Shown piece after piece: positions 35,089-55,992 of a stretch of DNA of 64,000 nt. The stretch is from a virus. Taxonomy: Duplodnaviria; Heunggongvirae; Uroviricota; Caudoviricetes. The first letter of the stretch is position 1. Each line of letters begins with the position of its first letter. The notes under the pieces were generated by a model. That model did not search any database. It saw only the letters and a program-made list of their open reading frames with translations, and was not told the DNA's origin. The translations under genes were made by a program, and so were the position numbers. The stretch lies in IMG/VR virus record IMGVR_UViG_3300032007_000002. One strand, written 5' to 3'.

Positions 35089-35883
35089 ATGCAACCGATT
35101 AAAGAAACCCCAGCAGTTGCAATGTACATTAAGGCCATTGCGAAGACAACGCCACTGACGAGGGACGAGGAGGTCGTCCTCACTACCTTGGCCAGGAGGG
35201 GCAACCGCGCGGCCAGGAAGCGCGTCATGGAGGCAAACATGAGGTTCGTCCTGGGTGTCGCGCTGACATACAAGACTTCCCCGCTCGGTGTCGGCGACAT
35301 GGTGAACGAGGGAATGATGGGACTGTCCCGGGCAATCGACAAGTTCGACCCGAAGACCGGCATGAAGTTCATCAGTTACGCTGTGTGGTGGATCCGTTCA
35401 TACATCGGCAAGGCGATTAACGAGTACGGGTATTCCGCAATCCGCCTTCCCGCGAACAAGTACAAGAAGCTGTTTACGTCGATGACCACCGGGGACACGT
35501 CCAAGCTGAACAAGCAGGAAATCGAGATGCTTCCCCTGATGTATCGCCCGTCGAACCTGGACATGCCGGTCGATGGCGATTCCGATACCAACCTTAGTGA
35601 AATGATTGGGGACCCGAACTCCCTCAGCGCAGTTGACAGCCTTGACGCTGCCGAACGCGACACGCTCGTGAAGGAACTGCTCGCCGAAATGCCGGAACCT
35701 GCCCGGAAGGCGGTTGAACAGCATTTCTTCGAGAACTGTTCGTCGGATGAACTCCAGATGGACTTGAAGCTGAGCCGCGAGCGCATTCGCCAGATCAAGA
35801 ACCGTGCGATTGACAGGCTCCGCAATTCCCGGACCCAGCATGACAGCCGGGTGGGGGAACTACTTCGCGAGCTCGCCACTTAG
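35089..35883 (+). CDS. phage sigma-70 family RNA polymerase sigma factor
   Basis: Region 1.2 (YIKAI), region 2 (ANMRFV, DMVNEG, KFDP...KFISYAVWWIR), IRLP, region 4 (LSRERIRQIK). Confidence 0.92.
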   Translation: MQPIKETPAVAMYIKAIAKTTPLTRDEEVVLTTLARRGNRAARKRVMEANMRFVLGVALTYKTSPLGVGDMVNEGMMGLSRAIDKFDPKTGMKFISYAVWWIRSYIGKAINEYGYSAIRLPANKYKKLFTSMTTGDTSKLNKQEIEMLPLMYRPSNLDMPVDGDSDTNLSEMIGDPNSLSAVDSLDAAERDTLVKELLAEMPEPARKAVEQHFFENCSSDELQMDLKLSRERIRQIKNRAIDRLRNSRTQHDSRVGELLRELAT

Positions 35884-37566
35884 CTGTTTCTGTGTCGGTA
35901 TTACTACCTTGGACAGTGCTGATGTCATGGAACTTGATTCCAGTCGGGCGAGAGCTTTTTGCTCCGCCTTTACTGCATCGTCTCCCATTGCCGCGATGGT
36001 GCGGTTTGCTTCCAGGGCGATGCCGTTGGAGAATTCCAGTTCGAGGCCGTTGAGGAAGCCGAGCGGCTTGACTTCGCCATAGAACATGTCGTTGTTGACA
36101 TAGTACAGGCACCAGCAGGTGGCCATGACGTGGTCGTCGTTCGTGCCCGCGCTGGAACCCCAGGTGTTCTGGGTAAGGCGGGTAAATGTCATGAACTCGT
36201 CGATTGTCTGCTTGTCGTGGAGTTTCAGGTAGCCTCGTTCCACATACAGTTTCGCGAGCATGACCGCCTGCTGCTTGATCTGGTTGTTCACCCACAGGCC
36301 GCGGAGTTCGTCGTCGTAGTTCTGTATATTGTCGTAGCCGATAGGCTCGTTGAAGAGCACGCCGTATGCGCGGGAGCCCGGGCCGTTGTATTCGAAGGTC
36401 AGCGGCGGGTTTCCGTAGACGGACAGGAGTTCGGCCGCGCATTTGCAGAAGTCTTCGATGGTGACCTTGTTGCTGGACAGAACGGCGACCTGTTCCAGCT
36501 CGATGTTGGACTTCGCGAGCATGATTTGGAGGACGTGGTTGTCCTTGCGCATACCGTAGGACGGGTCGAGCGCGGCGACATAGACCCAGCCGCGGCGTTC
36601 GATTTCTGCCGGGTGTATCGGTTCCATGTATATGCGGAGGTCGTTCTGCTCGAAGCCGGAAGGCAACGAGACGTATGGCAGCTGAAGCGGCTCGTCCGGG
36701 TTCAGCTTTTGCAGTATCTTGAAGTCGATAAGCGTGATGGCGGAGCCGATGAACTCGCACTCGTATTCCTGCCTGAAACGCATTTCGCCGATACGTTCCA
36801 GTTCGTGCTGGCCCCATTCGGGAGTTCGGCCCGGAACCTCGTGCCAGAGCACCACCGATCGGACATACTTGTTTTCGAGGTCTTCGCGCGATGCCGTCTT
36901 CTCGTCCACTGCCTGCTGCCACATCTCGTAGAAGAAGTTCATGCCCGCGGGCGTGGACGTTATGATGATGCGGCTGGTCTTACCTGACGTGATTGTCGGC
37001 ATCACCGATGCGCAGAACTCGCTCGCCATCTTGGGACGGAGGAACGCAAATTCGTCGAGGTAGAGGAGGTTGAGGGAATAACCACGGACACCGTCCGGGG
37101 TCGTTGCCGCGATGAGGACGCGGGTCTTGGTGGTGAACTCCACCGACAGCTTGTTCCAGAGCGTCACACCGGGCTGCATCCAAAACGGGAGGGCCAGGTA
37201 GGTTTCACGGAACTGCTGGAGCTGTTCCTTCGCGAGGGACAGCTTGTTGCCGAGCATCATGATGGTCTTGCGCCGCTTGAACACGGCGAACCAGAGGATG
37301 AACGCGCGGACGACGGTGGACTTACCCACCTGGCGGGACCACTTGTTGATATTGAAGCGGTATTTGAGGAAACGGAGGATTGCCTCTTTCTGGTATGGAT
37401 AGAGCTTCATCAGCTGGAAGCCGTTGTCCAGGGTGTTGATGTAAACGTAGTGCTCGATGAAGTATATCGGGTCGTTGACACACTTCTTGATTTCGTCGAG
37501 CATCCACAGTTTCATCTCGACTTTGTCGCGCGAATCGCGCAGGTTGTCTATACCGTTGAAAGGCAT
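35860..37566 (-). CDS. terL: terminase large subunit (T4 gp17-like)
   Basis: DPIYF, LYPYQ, SRQVGKST Walker A, LLYLDE Walker B, TSTPAG.NFFY, FRQEYEC, LDPSYG, DDHVMA. Confidence 0.93.
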   Translation of the reverse strand: MPFNGIDNLRDSRDKVEMKLWMLDEIKKCVNDPIYFIEHYVYINTLDNGFQLMKLYPYQKEAILRFLKYRFNINKWSRQVGKSTVVRAFILWFAVFKRRKTIMMLGNKLSLAKEQLQQFRETYLALPFWMQPGVTLWNKLSVEFTTKTRVLIAATTPDGVRGYSLNLLYLDEFAFLRPKMASEFCASVMPTITSGKTSRIIITSTPAGMNFFYEMWQQAVDEKTASREDLENKYVRSVVLWHEVPGRTPEWGQHELERIGEMRFRQEYECEFIGSAITLIDFKILQKLNPDEPLQLPYVSLPSGFEQNDLRIYMEPIHPAEIERRGWVYVAALDPSYGMRKDNHVLQIMLAKSNIELEQVAVLSSNKVTIEDFCKCAAELLSVYGNPPLTFEYNGPGSRAYGVLFNEPIGYDNIQNYDDELRGLWVNNQIKQQAVMLAKLYVERGYLKLHDKQTIDEFMTFTRLTQNTWGSSAGTNDDHVMATCWCLYYVNNDMFYGEVKPLGFLNGLELEFSNGIALEANRTIAAMGDDAVKAEQKALARLESSSMTSALSKVVIPTQKQLSGELAK

Positions 37567-50400: not shown

Positions 50401-51213
50401 ATGAAACAGTATCTTGACTTGCTTAAGGACATCTTCGAGAACGGCGTTGACCGCTCCGACCGCACCGGGACGGGAACCCGCTCCGTGTTCGGTCGCCAGA
50501 TGCGGTTCGACCTGTCCGAAGGTTTTCCGTGCCTCACTACGAAGAAGCTCCATCTCCGTTCCATCATCCACGAACTTCTCTGGTTCTTGAAGGGCGATAC
50601 GAACATCAAGTATCTCCACGACAACAAGGTGACCATCTGGGACGAGTGGGCAGACGAAAATGGCGACCTCGGTCCGGTCTATGGGCACCAGTGGCGTTCC
50701 TGGCCTACTCCCGACGGCGGGCATATCGACCAGATTGCCAACCTCGTGAACAGCCTCAAGAACAACCCGGACTCCCGCAGGCACCTCGTCTGCGCCTGGA
50801 ACGTGGCGGAAGTTGACAAGATGGCCCTCCCGCCGTGCCACTGCCTGTTCCAGTTCTATGTGGGCGGTGTGGGCAAGAGCGGCAAGCGCAGGCTCAGCTG
50901 CCAGCTGTATCAGCGCAGTGCCGACACCTTCCTCGGCGTCCCGTTCAACATTGCGTCCTATGCGCTCCTTACGATGATGCTCGCGCAGGTGTGCGGGTAT
51001 GAACCGGGCGAGTTCGTCCACACGCTCGGCGATACCCACATCTACTCGAACCACTTCGAGCAGGTGAAGGAACAGCTGTCCCGCGAGCCGCGCAAGCTCC
51101 CGACCATGCGCATCAACCCGGAGGTGAAGGACATCTTCGACTTCAAGTTCGAGGACTTCACCCTGGAGAACTACGATCCGTGGCCGGCAATCAAGGCGCC
51201 GGTGGCAGTCTAG
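50401..51213 (+). CDS. thyA: thymidylate synthase
   Basis: DRTGTGT, ELLWFL, LPPCH, YQRSAD, HIYSNH. Confidence 0.97.
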
Positions 51214-51234
51214 GATTGCCTTTTGCTATATTTC

Positions 51235-51264
51235 AAGCGGTGACGGGTTCCGTCACCGCTTTTT
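51235..51264 (+). terminator. terminator-like hairpin after thyA
   Basis: AAGCGGTGACGG-gtt-CCGTCACCGCTTTTT. Confidence 0.65.
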
Positions 51265-51275
51265 AGTGAGGTTTT

Positions 51276-52196
51276 ATGCTTCTGTCTATGATTTTGGCCC
51301 GTTCAATGGGCGGAATGATTGGCGTCGATGGGCAAATCCCGTGGAAACTTTCGACTGACATGGCGCGTTTCAAGCGCATCACGATGGGCCACCATGTAAT
51401 CATGGGCCGCGCGTGCTATGAATCTATCGGCAAGCCGCTTCCCGGCAGGACGGAAATCGTCGTGACCCATAGCAAGGATTTTGCTGTACGCGATGGAGTA
51501 AAGGTTGTTCATTCTATTGCCGAGGCGATCGCTGTTGCCAAGGAGGCCGGCGACTCGGAGGCATTCATCATCGGTGGCGCCACTCTGTATGACCAGACAA
51601 TCGGCATTGTCGGCAAGGTTTACGATACTACGGTGGACCGTTCCAATTTCAGCGGGAATGAATATACACACCTGTCTGAACGGACGCTCTATTATCTAAA
51701 GTCGGGTGCGTTCAAAACGGTCGGGACGCCGGAACGGTCCGAGAAGGGTATGCTGGATGAATATTCGTCCACCTTTACCGTCAGGGAACGTAAACGTTTC
51801 TGCGGTTATGGCGATATTTACGCCGGAAACGCGGAACGGGGCGAACTCCAGGTTGAAATCCGTTTCGGAACTAGGGGAGTTGTTCGCATGAAGTCGGCAC
51901 ATCTTGGCGGACAAGATCGGTTCGAATGGTATCTGTCCAAGATTACGGTTCCGGTCAAATTCATGGATGCCGGGGTGGCCGGGTATATAACCGACATTGA
52001 AATCCATAAGGACCTGTATGTGGACGGAACGTTGCATCTTGTGGAAAACGACGCCACCCGCACTATGCGGGAACTTGCCAAGGGAGGCATGGAATTTTCC
52101 GTCACGGCAGAGGATGCCATGCTGTACAACGGTTGTGTGATTAAGCATGACATGTCCAGAATTGGTACGCTGGAAGCAATCGTGAATAAAGATTGA
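51276..52196 (+). CDS. folA: dihydrofolate reductase with extra C-terminal domain
   Basis: IG...IPW...DMARFK, IMGR, PLPGR, IIGG; ~130 extra residues. Confidence 0.88.
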   Translation: MLLSMILARSMGGMIGVDGQIPWKLSTDMARFKRITMGHHVIMGRACYESIGKPLPGRTEIVVTHSKDFAVRDGVKVVHSIAEAIAVAKEAGDSEAFIIGGATLYDQTIGIVGKVYDTTVDRSNFSGNEYTHLSERTLYYLKSGAFKTVGTPERSEKGMLDEYSSTFTVRERKRFCGYGDIYAGNAERGELQVEIRFGTRGVVRMKSAHLGGQDRFEWYLSKITVPVKFMDAGVAGYITDIEIHKDLYVDGTLHLVENDATRTMRELAKGGMEFSVTAEDAMLYNGCVIKHDMSRIGTLEAIVNKD

Positions 52197-52780: not shown

Positions 52781-53179
52781 GATTTTTGGGAATATGGCGT
52801 GACAACTGTTGAAGTTTTTGCTATATTTCATTACGGAGAGGTCCGAGAGACCTCTTGAAGATTGAAAGACGCGGCATGGATTACTTTGCGGTTACGTAAA
52901 AACCGCACGTTCCCGGTAACGTTATCCGGGCAACAAGATATTCGGGGCGGTGGGTGCCGGCTACCTAGCCGGAGGGCTACCGTCCTACCTCTTGTGGATG
53001 GCACTGTCCATCCAAAAAGACCTTCCTGTCGGAGTAACTCGTGGGCGGAGCCGGCTTACTCGCGGCGAAACCTAAACGAGGCAGGGGGCCTTTTTGGGCG
53101 GACAGCCCATGAATTTGACGACTTCGGGGTATGCGGGAAGTTCCCGCAAGTGCTGCCCCGCTGTCGGACGTGTTTGTAT

Positions 53180-53251
53180 TGCCCGTTAGCCAAGTGGTAA
53201 GGCAGAGGATTCTGAATCCTCCATTCGGTGGTTCGAAGCCATCACGGGCAA
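53180..53251 (+). tRNA. tRNA-Gln (CTG), CCA not encoded
   Basis: TGCCCGT/ACGGGCA acceptor, GCCAAGTGGTAAGGC D-arm, GAGGA-TTCTGAA-TCCTC, GGTTCGAAGCC. Confidence 0.92.
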
Positions 53252-53264
53252 CTACAATAATCTT

Positions 53265-53628
53265 GGGGATGCTTTGGTTTCGACTGGGTATCAAGTTACC
53301 AAGACCTCACCCGCAGTTGGTCTATGGCTGCGTCACAAATGGACCGAAAACACAAATGCCAACAACAGTGCATTCGCCTATCGCGCTGCCGCCTAATCAG
53401 TAGCGGCGTGATTGCCCGGAACAAGCGGAAGGAATAAATTCCGGGACCAAGTGCATATCTTCCAGATTTAGCCGTGAGTTACTGGTCGTAGATCGGCTAT
53501 CTTATACTGGACCAGGACCCCTCTCGGGTAGATCCCCTTGTGGCTTAGGTAGAGCCCTAATAGATTGATGGTGATACGGTTGACGCGATGAGGTATTTAG
53601 GACAGGGGTTCGAACCCCCTCATCTCCA
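53265..53628 (+). ncRNA. ssrA: tmRNA; tag peptide ANNSAFAYRAAA (53358-53396)
   Basis: 5' GGGGATG...TTCGAC, 3' GGACAGGGGTTCGAACCCCCTCATCTCCA with G3:U70; tag ORF ending in AAA-stop. Confidence 0.92.
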
Positions 53629-53827
53629 CGAATTTTCGTCCTGCTGTCGGTAGGACCGCCCTCCAGCACGGGGTAGATGTGGGTGACCGGCTCCGGGTGG
53701 AGCGGCATGCCACTAAGGCAGCGGACACCGTCTTTCCATGCCGCGTCTGTAAAACTGCGGTGCCTCACCCGGCGGAGCGACAAGCGTGTCGCAGAACCCG
53801 GATGGCTAAGCGGTGGCAACGGTTGGT

Positions 53828-55281
53828 AAAAAGTGGTCGCATGAACATGCCCTTTAGATCGTGGGCGAGAACCGCCGATAGTAAATGTAATAAATAAATT
53901 ACATATTAAAGCAACTAATTCATATTTTATTTGAGTTGAATGCTATAAACTTTAATTGAAGTCAAGAAATTTAACATGGAAGCAGTAAGAAGCGAAGATA
54001 CGAAGGCCAAGATACGGGCGAGTATGTCCGCAACAAAGGCCAGACGGCAGACACAAGTCTGTCGAGTATTCGAGCTGAAGGTTTCCATACGGCACAATCC
54101 TAAGTCGGTGTTCGATAAGATGTCCCAATGCTTCAAGGAAGCGAAGTGGGTAATTAACGACATGCTATCGTTGTCCAAGGATAATCCAGACAATAGCATG
54201 TTTGACTACAAGTACACCGATCATAAGGATGTTGTTCATTACGACAAGGACAATAACCCAGTCCATTCTTCAATTACATTACCGTCGGTACTTCACAGGG
54301 CAACTGTAGCACAAAAGAGGACCGACATAGTGAACTTGGCTAAGGCCAAGTCACACGGAAGAAAGATTGGCGCACTGAAGTTCAAGCGGCAAGTGGACTG
54401 CATACCTATCATTACTGGGTTCACGCAGATTATTGACGGGTGTAGGCTAACCATACCGGGGTTCACGAAAATCCGGGTCAACGGACTGAACCAACTGCAC
54501 CAATTTGAACAGTTTGAAATAGCTGATGCCAAGCTGGTTCGCAAGGCAAGCGGCTACTATGTGAAGATTAGCATAATGCTACCGAAATCATCAAGGAAGC
54601 CTACCAACCGAGAGGTTGGTCTTGATTTCGGTATAAAGGATTCCATAACGACATCAAACGGAGACAAGTACAACTGCAAAGTGCAAGAATCGGAACGCCT
54701 GAAGTACCTTTCACGAATGTTGAATAGGCACAAGACCGAGAAGGGTTCCAAGCGGCGATGGAGATGTAAGTGTCAACTGGCTAGGGAGCATGAACGATTG
54801 GCTAATAAACGGAAGGATATTGCCAATAAGATATACAACCGGCTAGTAACCGATTACGATGTTATCTACTTTCAAGACGAGCAGATTAAGAACTGGCAGA
54901 AAGGGTTGTTCGGTAAGTCCGTGCAGTCTTCCTGTCTCGGTTCGCTGAAACAACGACTTGTCGCTCTCGAAGCGAGTGGACGTAGTTTCAAGATTTCTAA
55001 GTGGGAACCCACTACAAAGTTGTGTCCGATGTGTGGCTGCATAAACCACCCGACGCTTGCAGACAGAATCTACAAGTGCGACTGCGGATATACTATGGAC
55101 AGGGACACCCATTCTGCCCGTGTGGTCTTGGTGATTGGCTCGTCTAAAAGAGCCGAGTGCGTGGAACACGCCTCCGCTGAGGTAGCCGCCTCTATGCCTA
55201 CCAGTTCTACTGGGTTAGCACAAGTGGCTCCGTTGAAGCGAAAACTCGAAGCTCATGCCCTTTAGGTCGTGGGTAGTTCAC
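53828..55281 (+). mobile_element. non-autonomous IS200/IS605-family (tnpB-only) element
   Basis: Subterminal hairpins CATGCCCTTTAG(A/G)TCGTGGG at 53846-53865 and 55254-55273 (19/20 identical); right end GTAGTTCAC; lower GC; left boundary approximate. Confidence 0.8.
53976..55265 (+). CDS. tnpB: TnpB RNA-guided endonuclease
   Basis: RuvC-I GLDFG, RuvC-II YFQDEQ, TTKLCPMC...CDC zinc finger, RuvC-III DRD. Confidence 0.9.
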   Translation: MEAVRSEDTKAKIRASMSATKARRQTQVCRVFELKVSIRHNPKSVFDKMSQCFKEAKWVINDMLSLSKDNPDNSMFDYKYTDHKDVVHYDKDNNPVHSSITLPSVLHRATVAQKRTDIVNLAKAKSHGRKIGALKFKRQVDCIPIITGFTQIIDGCRLTIPGFTKIRVNGLNQLHQFEQFEIADAKLVRKASGYYVKISIMLPKSSRKPTNREVGLDFGIKDSITTSNGDKYNCKVQESERLKYLSRMLNRHKTEKGSKRRWRCKCQLAREHERLANKRKDIANKIYNRLVTDYDVIYFQDEQIKNWQKGLFGKSVQSSCLGSLKQRLVALEASGRSFKISKWEPTTKLCPMCGCINHPTLADRIYKCDCGYTMDRDTHSARVVLVIGSSKRAECVEHASAEVAASMPTSSTGLAQVAPLKRKLEAHAL

Positions 55282-55345
55282 GGGCGACTTGTGTTGCTTC
55301 CTGGCGACCTAACGGGCCGGGAATGAAAAGGATATCGCAGCAACC
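55282..55345 (+). ncRNA. probable 3' remnant of the large ncRNA; also the predicted TnpB guide region
   Basis: GTTGCT...AGCAAC stem enclosing TTCCTGGC/GCCGGGAA with a CC-TAAC-GG tip. Confidence 0.4.
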
Positions 55346-55359
55346 ATTTGGGAACCGAC

Positions 55360-55911: not shown

Positions 55912-55992
55912 AAAGTTTGATGTTGTTGAGCAAGGACGCGCGGGAGACCGCGCGTTTTTGCTATATTTTAGTGGACAATATAGGATTGAAAC

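Follow-up and report, generated by a model that had tools for sequence, protein, structure and literature searches.

Results

A tnpB-only element and its empty alleles

The DNA analysed here, a stretch of 64,000 nt that we refer to as the window, belongs to the IMG/VR virus record IMGVR_UViG_3300032007_000002 (Caudoviricetes) and carries, on the plus strand at positions 53828-55281, a tnpB-only transposable element of 1454 bp, whose left limit is fixed only to ±1 nt because of a 1-nt deletion at this place. Near-identical phage sequences lack the element and reveal the site into which it was inserted. The five nucleotides in front of it (53823-53827), corresponding to the transposon-adjacent motif (TAM) and left cleavage site, read TTGGT in the window and TTGAC in all five empty alleles as well as in the family consensus. 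The left end of the element comprises 148 nt (53828-53975) and consists of a decayed subterminal hairpin region with a motif at 53846-53865, an AT-rich stretch and a promoter-like box TTTATTTGAGTT at 53926-53937. It is followed by tnpB (53976-55265) and by the scaffold of a putative omega-RNA (55082-55281), which was delineated by RNAalifold covariation, overlaps the 3' end of tnpB and has a provisional 5' limit. Directly after the conserved right end lies the predicted guide or target sequence GGGCGACTTGTGTTGC (55282-55297), and the identity of this flank with the empty alleles runs to approximately position 55306. All these features have the same orientation as the element, which is itself co-oriented with the transcription unit for tRNA-Gln and transfer-messenger RNA (tmRNA) upstream of it. 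The 20-nt motif CATGCCCTTTAG[A/G]TCGTGGG is present close to the left end (53846-53865) and close to the right end (55254-55273), and two matches to it were obtained in none of 100 shuffled sequences. The right end, ...TAGTTCAC, closes the element at 55281 and is the same in all 24 distinct related insertions.

The nearest virus record (G001, 172 kb) is 97-98% identical to the window on both flanks and does not contain the element. An exact-protein look-up of the 183-amino-acid protein encoded downstream of the insertion revealed four further empty alleles (L035, L036, L037 and L040), together with three contigs that have a different upstream sequence. In all five empty sites ...GGCAACGGTTGAC is directly followed by GGGCGACTTGTGTTGC..., so that the junction reads GGTTGAC/GGGCGACTTG. 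These sites (TTGAC/GGG...) prove that the element was inserted 3' of a short conserved target and that the target was not duplicated. Since the empty alleles already have TTGAC, this motif belongs to the flank, and TTGAC is, by this comparison, the TAM of the element, while the TTGGT found at the left junction of the window is a derived, mutated form of it. A first BLAST boundary at 53825/55276 with a 4-nt overlap was dropped after comparison with the empty sites and the family; both the overlap and the shifted junction are explained by the resemblance between the TAM (TTGAC) and the right end (TTCAC).

The predicted guide, which occurs only once in the window, matches the empty alleles L035, L036, L037 and L040 at all 16 positions and G001 at 15 of 16, the mismatch being a T in place of C at guide position 4. 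The target is preceded by TTGAC in the empty alleles and by TTCAC in the occupied one, and this one-base difference is predicted to make a discrimination between self and non-self available to the nuclease.

An earlier note on this DNA, made from the letters alone, had described a tnpB-only element closed by TTCAC, without tnpA and with the adjacent right flank as guide, and had expected element-free alleles to carry the guide target. These points were all borne out: the TnpB protein is intact, shows the domains of the IS200/IS605 type and matches the structures of ISDra2 TnpB, the right end recurs in 24 of 24 related insertions, the flank starts directly after the conserved end, and the target is exact in at least four near-identical phage contigs, with one mismatch in the fifth. 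The note had given 53821-55300 as the span, which has to be narrowed to the limits stated above. It had further reconstructed the empty site as GGTTGGT/GGGCGACTTG and proposed to look for relatives with such a site; the five that were found agree exactly with the register of this junction but not with its bases, and a TAM of about TTGGT is not tenable in view of TTGAC in all empty alleles and NTGAC in 20 of the 24 related insertions.

The scans of IMG/VR with patterns of the trailer and of the tmRNA recovered G001 only, and G001 was also the only relative with the downstream gene in this database. A pattern scan of IMG/VR with the occupied right junction gave no match. The region at 55323-55359, which comprises the 5' untranslated region and ribosome-binding site of the downstream gene, is unusually diverged between the window and the relatives with the empty site. 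Over the 200 nt that follow the insertion 12-13 differences were counted, compared with 0-3 per 200 nt elsewhere in the vicinity, and the encoded protein is still identical. This divergence could represent a co-conversion tract or be the outcome of local selection.

TnpB and the putative omega-RNA

The 429-amino-acid protein matches the Pfam families OrfB_IS605 (1.6e-9) and Cas12f1-like_TNB (3.4e-9) above the curated cut-offs as well as the ISDra2 TnpB structures (E 2e-17). It possesses D217 (RuvC-I), Q300-D301-E302 at the RuvC-II position, four zinc-finger cysteines (C350, C353, C368 and C370) and R376-D377 (RuvC-III). An exhaustive search yielded 330 cluster representatives at E ≤ 1e-30, and the residues were scored in the 132 full-length sequences among the best 150, which are 32-50% identical to the query. 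None of these 132 representatives departs from Q300, D217 or R376-D377. Position 301 is occupied by D (or N) and position 302 by an acidic residue in every case (E in 110, D in 22), and the four cysteines are kept in 128-130. The invariance of the Q-D-[E/D] arrangement makes a shifted catalytic acid more likely than a dead enzyme, and the RuvC-II site is, by its conservation, probably constrained, rearranged and active rather than decayed. Conserved rearrangements of RuvC-II, some of them in virus-specific branches, have been published and interpreted as active (PMC10691335).

RNAalifold, applied to an alignment of the last 200 nt of 21 copies, gave a fold of eight helices and 45 pairs, and compensatory changes occur in 23 of these pairs. 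In this alignment 94.8% of the cells are paired, compared with 35-45% when the partners are slid, and none of 500 shuffles reached the observed values. The region has no match to an Rfam family. The terminal stem of the RNA (55251-55274) coincides with the hairpin of the right end in the DNA, and in the window nine of the ten pairs of this stem form as RNA, helped by G-U pairs. The strong covariation thus supports a structured omega-RNA scaffold that abuts the transposon end.

A part of the right-end hairpin (55257-55269) is complementary at 12 of 13 positions to the phage flank at 55305-55317, which lies 23 nt past the element. A G-to-A change of the window at 55308 improves this pairing and disrupts the phage's own 3' hairpin. 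As pairs of similar size occur elsewhere, the complementarity may be due to chance.

Decay of the left end and selection on tnpB

The expected sequence at the left junction, TTGAC-AAATAGGCGG, is represented in the window by TTGGT-AAAAAG-TGG, so that over a length of 16 nt four bases are substituted and one is deleted. No part of the element is better conserved among the other copies than the first 50 nt of the left end, where they are 90-100% identical to each other even if their open reading frames (ORFs) share only 73-78% identity. The window copy is only 69-75% identical to them there, despite an identity of 86-90% between its ORF and that of the nearest relatives.

The subterminal hairpins at the DNA level are affected as well. 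The right-end hairpin of the window has a folding energy of -2.8 kcal/mol (z +0.6), compared with -10 kcal/mol (z -3.0) in the relative L004, and the left-end hairpin of the family does not form at all in the window copy, so that only the 20-nt motif remains of the end hairpins. The paired subterminal hairpins of the earlier note are therefore present as a motif at both ends but not as stable DNA structures. The same two changes, C to T in the 5' arm and G to T in the 3' arm, have occurred at the left and at the right end, and a scan of IMG/VR for the window-type hairpin revealed no other copy.

On the branch leading to the tnpB gene of the window there are 29 synonymous and 10 non-synonymous changes, and the sister copies have ratios of 26/8 and 26/7. 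Judged by these counts, tnpB is under purifying selection on the window's own branch. Because the TAM is decayed, 1 nt is deleted and the left-end foot and the hairpin are altered, this copy is probably no longer moved by a transposase. The loss of transposase-dependent mobility, with the nuclease gene remaining under selection, would be the simplest reading of these data.

A family of tnpB-only elements in large phage contigs

Relatives with 70-95% identity were found at 26 IMG/VR loci and on three contigs of metagenome-assembled genomes. The latter (89-317 kb) were the only ones detected in a scan of bacterial genomes, in which no host-chromosome source of the family was identified; their elements share the ends of the family, and tnpB follows the left end without an intervening tnpA. 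The ORF is intact in all 22 translated copies (21 related loci and the window). The family right end AGTTCAC is invariant and is followed by an unrelated flank at every distinct insertion site examined, and the left end starts with AAA(T/G)AGGCGGTCGC... It is preceded by NTGAC in 20 of 24 related insertions and by TTGAT in one more (TTGAC 13, CTGAC 3, GTGAC 2, ATGAC 2, TTGAT 1). The subterminal hairpins of the family have stems of 7-10 bp with compensatory changes. The window element is a non-autonomous, IS1341-like tnpB-only element of the IS200/IS605 type, and its family is abundant in large phage contigs from rumen and gut.

There exists a conserved box, TATATTTGAGTT, in the left ends of the family approximately 40-50 nt before tnpB, the window copy of which reads TTTATTTG (53926-53937). 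We take it to fit the Bacteroidota-type -7 promoter element TAnnTTTG. Similar strings are present at 1679 and at 55962, the latter just before a RlaP-like gene.

Some copies have unusual structures. In L018 (2900-3000 and 4290-4320) the left end is truncated, the tnpB stop codon is lost, giving a read-through of 500 amino acids, and the 13-nt string ACACAAGGAAGGC flanks both ends, which suggests an imprecise recombination or repair event. In L011 and L012, approximately 150 nt upstream of tnpB, a truncated left end is preceded by the right-end-like remnant GGGGTAGTTCTG, which might reflect the insertion of family members in tandem or into one another.

No gene for a transposase was found in the window or within the family copies examined. 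None of the 114 six-frame ORFs of 105-240 amino acids in the window matches Y1_Tnp or a resolvase, tblastn of the window with phage Y1 TnpA gave nothing, and the copies examined contain no tnpA, only about 150 nt separating the left end from the start of tnpB. Four of the five related phage records are also devoid of a transposase; host genomes were not searched for TnpA. The remaining record (G003, 253 kb) encodes a 136-amino-acid Y1 (IS200-like) transposase (L030:1474-1884) and has two family tnpB copies in the same phage. We rejected this protein as the cognate transposase, since its ends are unrelated, no family end motifs lie nearby and its neighbour is not TnpB.

The insertion site and its phage context

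The window is phage DNA, as it encodes a large terminase subunit (35860-37566) and an NAD-dependent ligase, and genes for thymidylate synthase, dihydrofolate reductase (DHFR) and an amidase are located close upstream of the insertion locus. Contigs near-identical to the window phage reach up to 436 kb, and the carrier of the element is a rumen jumbo phage. Among the INPHARED phage records there were zero matches to the window, in near as well as in distant mode.

A promoter-like site (52799-52827) precedes a stretch without protein genes, in which ARAGORN located tRNA-Gln (53180-53252) upstream of the phage tmRNA (53265-53631, plus strand). The latter was identified by ARAGORN and by Rfam (RF00023, 88.6 bits) and is the last recognisable RNA gene before the insertion. 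The left part of the following trailer (53632-53822, plus strand) is what the earlier note had taken for a non-coding RNA (ncRNA). In the empty alleles 277 nt separate the tmRNA from the next gene. This spacer has no Rfam match and folds no better than shuffled sequences (z +0.17), and five spacer sequences that are 96-99% identical exhibit just one compensatory pair and four wobble-compatible changes. The compensatory pair (C-G to U-A in L040) belongs to the 3'-terminal hairpin of the RNA module (55298-55322, plus strand), in which the window has two disruptive changes. A 14-nt leader-trailer helix (52868-52881 with 53734-53747), seen as inverted repeat I3 in an empty-site relative and in the window sequence, is located about 80 nt upstream of the insertion, and RNAduplex detected no pairing beyond shuffles between the leader and trailer parts. 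The G+C content falls from about 60% to 36-45% starting at approximately 53800.

The three contigs with a different upstream sequence (L038:1-190, L041:1-190 and L039:1-65) encode the identical downstream protein and are wholly different upstream of GATGAAAAGG, with a junction at approximately window position 55322. Their differing segments have no Rfam match either, and the arrangement suggests that the place of the tRNA/tmRNA module is taken there by a further repeated or mobile segment. Since these module-less contigs are homologous only from about 55322 onwards, the insertion lies within the region of about the last 40 nt from the end of the RNA module. The insertion site is thus the 3' trailer of the tRNA-Gln/tmRNA module, and a discrete structured ncRNA as host is not established. 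It follows that the insertion into an ncRNA, as put forward in the earlier note, is unproven, and the proposed fusion of the omega-RNA to the 3' domain of such an RNA says no more than that the flank serves as the guide, which is trivial.

Two further peculiarities concern the surroundings. The empty-site relative L035 has an extra G+C-rich insert of about 106 nt right after the 3' end of the tmRNA (L035:3120-3230), which takes the place of GAATTTT (approximately window 53628-53636) and is unrelated to the ends of the TnpB family. A highly divergent patch at approximately 51200-52000, 1800-2600 nt to the left of the insertion and within or next to the DHFR gene, shows 15-25% differences per 200 nt between phages that are otherwise about 99% identical, which indicates mosaicism.

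Discussion

The empty allele as the proposed target of the nuclease

We consider it likely, with a probability of roughly 0.7, that a tnpB-only element was inserted 3' of TTGAC, that its TnpB/omega-RNA complex targets the empty allele and that the substrates for TnpA have decayed in this copy. The element was inserted without duplication directly 3' of TTGAC in the trailer after the tRNA-Gln and tmRNA genes, and TnpB would be expressed from the AT-rich left-end promoter region of the element or by read-through. The omega-RNA would be cut from the 3' end of the tnpB transcript, with GGGCGACTTGTGTTGC... as guide, and the ribonucleoprotein would recognise TTGAC followed by a guide-matching sequence, i.e. 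the empty allele of at least four near-identical phages, while its own allele would be spared by TTCAC ahead of the same sequence. If a co-infecting genome without the element were cut, its repair from the occupied genome would copy the element in. Such non-restorative homing would amount to a localized marker exclusion, and the copy, if it is still spreading, would do so through TnpB. For expression, omega-RNA processing, targeting and homing we rely on established TnpB biology, and homing into the empty alleles of co-infecting phages is plausible by this analogy.

Several observations weigh against this reading. The occupied allele is a single instance, present in the window and in the JGI contig L042, which is 100% identical to the window and therefore not independent. 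Since the site is empty in every other relative found, nothing indicates that the insertion is sweeping. The catalytic Glu of ISDra2 aligns (phmmer) opposite Gln300 in the invariant IY[FI]QDEQI motif, and the exchange of Glu for Gln is a classic inactivating change; that E302 takes over the catalytic role we infer from conservation alone. The right-end stem of the window contains one C-U mismatch and three G-U pairs, by which the function of the omega-RNA could be impaired. The purifying selection recorded for tnpB may have acted on its branch before the left end decayed, and the hairpin changes shared by both ends could mean that the ends are remodelled rather than dead.

A more far-reaching version of the homing reading is tentative. 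It holds that the DNA features needed by the transposase (TAM, left-end foot and hairpins) are lost and that tnpB and the omega-RNA, with the Q-D-E RuvC-II site, are selected for RNA-guided cutting of TTGAC-bearing empty alleles, by which the element would spread among co-infecting jumbo phages or exclude them. If true, this would be a natural, TnpA-independent and RNA-guided gene drive between viruses. It is unlikely that the insertion is an inert fossil that neither transposes, cuts nor homes and simply hitch-hikes in one phage lineage. The heavily mutated left junction and left end, the weak DNA hairpins, a -7-like promoter box off the family consensus (TTTATTTG instead of TATATTTG) and an occupied allele in one lineage only, with at least five relatives empty, would all fit such a relic. 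An intact ORF with 29:10 synonymous to non-synonymous changes on its own branch, the retention of all catalytic and zinc-finger invariants, a terminal omega-RNA stem that still pairs at nine of ten positions and a guide that matches empty alleles 16/16 do not. We regard it as quite improbable that a sub-lineage changed the recognition of the hairpins and cleavage site and is still mobilised in trans by a matching Y1 TnpA. The two hairpin changes shared by both ends, which leave the ends 95% identical to each other, and about 12 changes in the first 50 nt of the left end against a synonymous rate of roughly 9% (a rough estimate from the branch counts) could be understood in this way. However, no other IMG/VR copy has these hairpins, no cognate TnpA was found in the window or in the related phage records, and the TAM of the ancestral flank is TTGAC, so that TTGGT arose after the insertion and cannot reflect a different target choice.

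Nuclease-dead domestication, as in TldR proteins, in which the guide would be used to bind and repress instead of to cut, is very unlikely here. The presence of Gln300 in place of the canonical RuvC-II Glu would agree with it, and phage-borne TldRs are known (PMC10705468), but the 132 representatives show no variation in Q-D-[E/D], D217, R376-D377 and the zinc finger as motifs. Moreover, the protein is full length, with a C-terminus that is not truncated and an intact zinc finger and RuvC-III, and the family keeps its transposon ends and has a different flank as guide at each distinct site, whereas TldRs lost their ends. The least credible explanation is that of an element of the IStron type, which would restore the host RNA by splicing itself out of the tRNA/tmRNA transcript. 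It would account for the location of the element inside, and its co-orientation with, an RNA transcription unit, but there is no group I intron or other Rfam match inside the element (gathering or E ≤ 1 thresholds), and only 148 nt, mostly AT-rich, precede tnpB.

The locus offers a matched natural pair, in which a TnpB element is present in one and absent from the other of two phage backbones that are otherwise the same (97-99% identical). Because TAM, guide and target can all be read, the cutting of the empty allele by TnpB is directly testable with a few short sequences. The locus also documents a large, apparently active tnpB-only family in jumbo phages from rumen and gut and a clade-wide Q-D-[E/D] variant of RuvC-II, and it contains one copy with decayed transposase substrates and an intact nuclease gene, which is the pattern expected if TnpB alone maintains or spreads the element.

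Comparison with known systems

The element resembles IS1341-type elements and ISDra2 from Deinococcus radiodurans in its OrfB_IS605 and zinc-ribbon domains, in the omega-RNA overlapping the 3' end of the gene, in the subterminal hairpins at both ends (at the level of the family), in its insertion 3' of a 5-nt TAM without duplication (TTGAC here, TTGAT in ISDra2) and in a right end (here TTCAC) that is similar to the TAM yet differs from it. There are also differences, since no copy seen has tnpA in cis, RuvC-II reads Q-D-E instead of E-D/H-L, and the carriers of the family are not bacterial chromosomes but large contigs of up to about 440 kb that are mostly classed as viral. Furthermore, the left end and the TAM of the window copy are decayed.

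SegB, from the tRNA region of T4, and SegF are free-standing homing endonucleases of T-even phages. In common with them, the window element is a selfish nuclease gene beside phage tRNA-type genes that is predicted to cut related phages without it, with co-conversion of the flanks. In contrast to SegB and SegF, its recognition would be guided by RNA and not by protein, and self and non-self would be set by the presence of the insertion.

The conserved replacement of the canonical RuvC-II Glu, with the remaining site conserved, is shared with the RIIr branches, some of which are virus-specific (Altae-Tran et al. 2023, PNAS, PMC10691335). RIIr-5, the large case described there, has a Gly and a distant alternative Glu, whereas the clade described here, which is not matched to a named branch, has a Gln and an invariant acid two residues later.

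Restorative homing by TnpB (Meers et al. 2023, Nature 622:863) and a TnpA-independent "gene drive" of IS605 among plasmids (Mears et al. 2025, bioRxiv 10.1101/2025.02.20.638934), both as cited in PMC13565253, are the closest precedents for the proposed mechanism, and in this 2026 review non-restorative homing between co-infecting phages figures only as a theoretical possibility. As in those studies, the predicted target is the element-free allele, composed of TAM and right flank, and occupied and empty alleles co-exist in near-identical, recombinable replicons; unlike there, the replicons are co-circulating phages. The element leaves the known framework unchanged and adds a phage case to it, as a clean natural instance of a type of selfish element that is already known and not of a new one.

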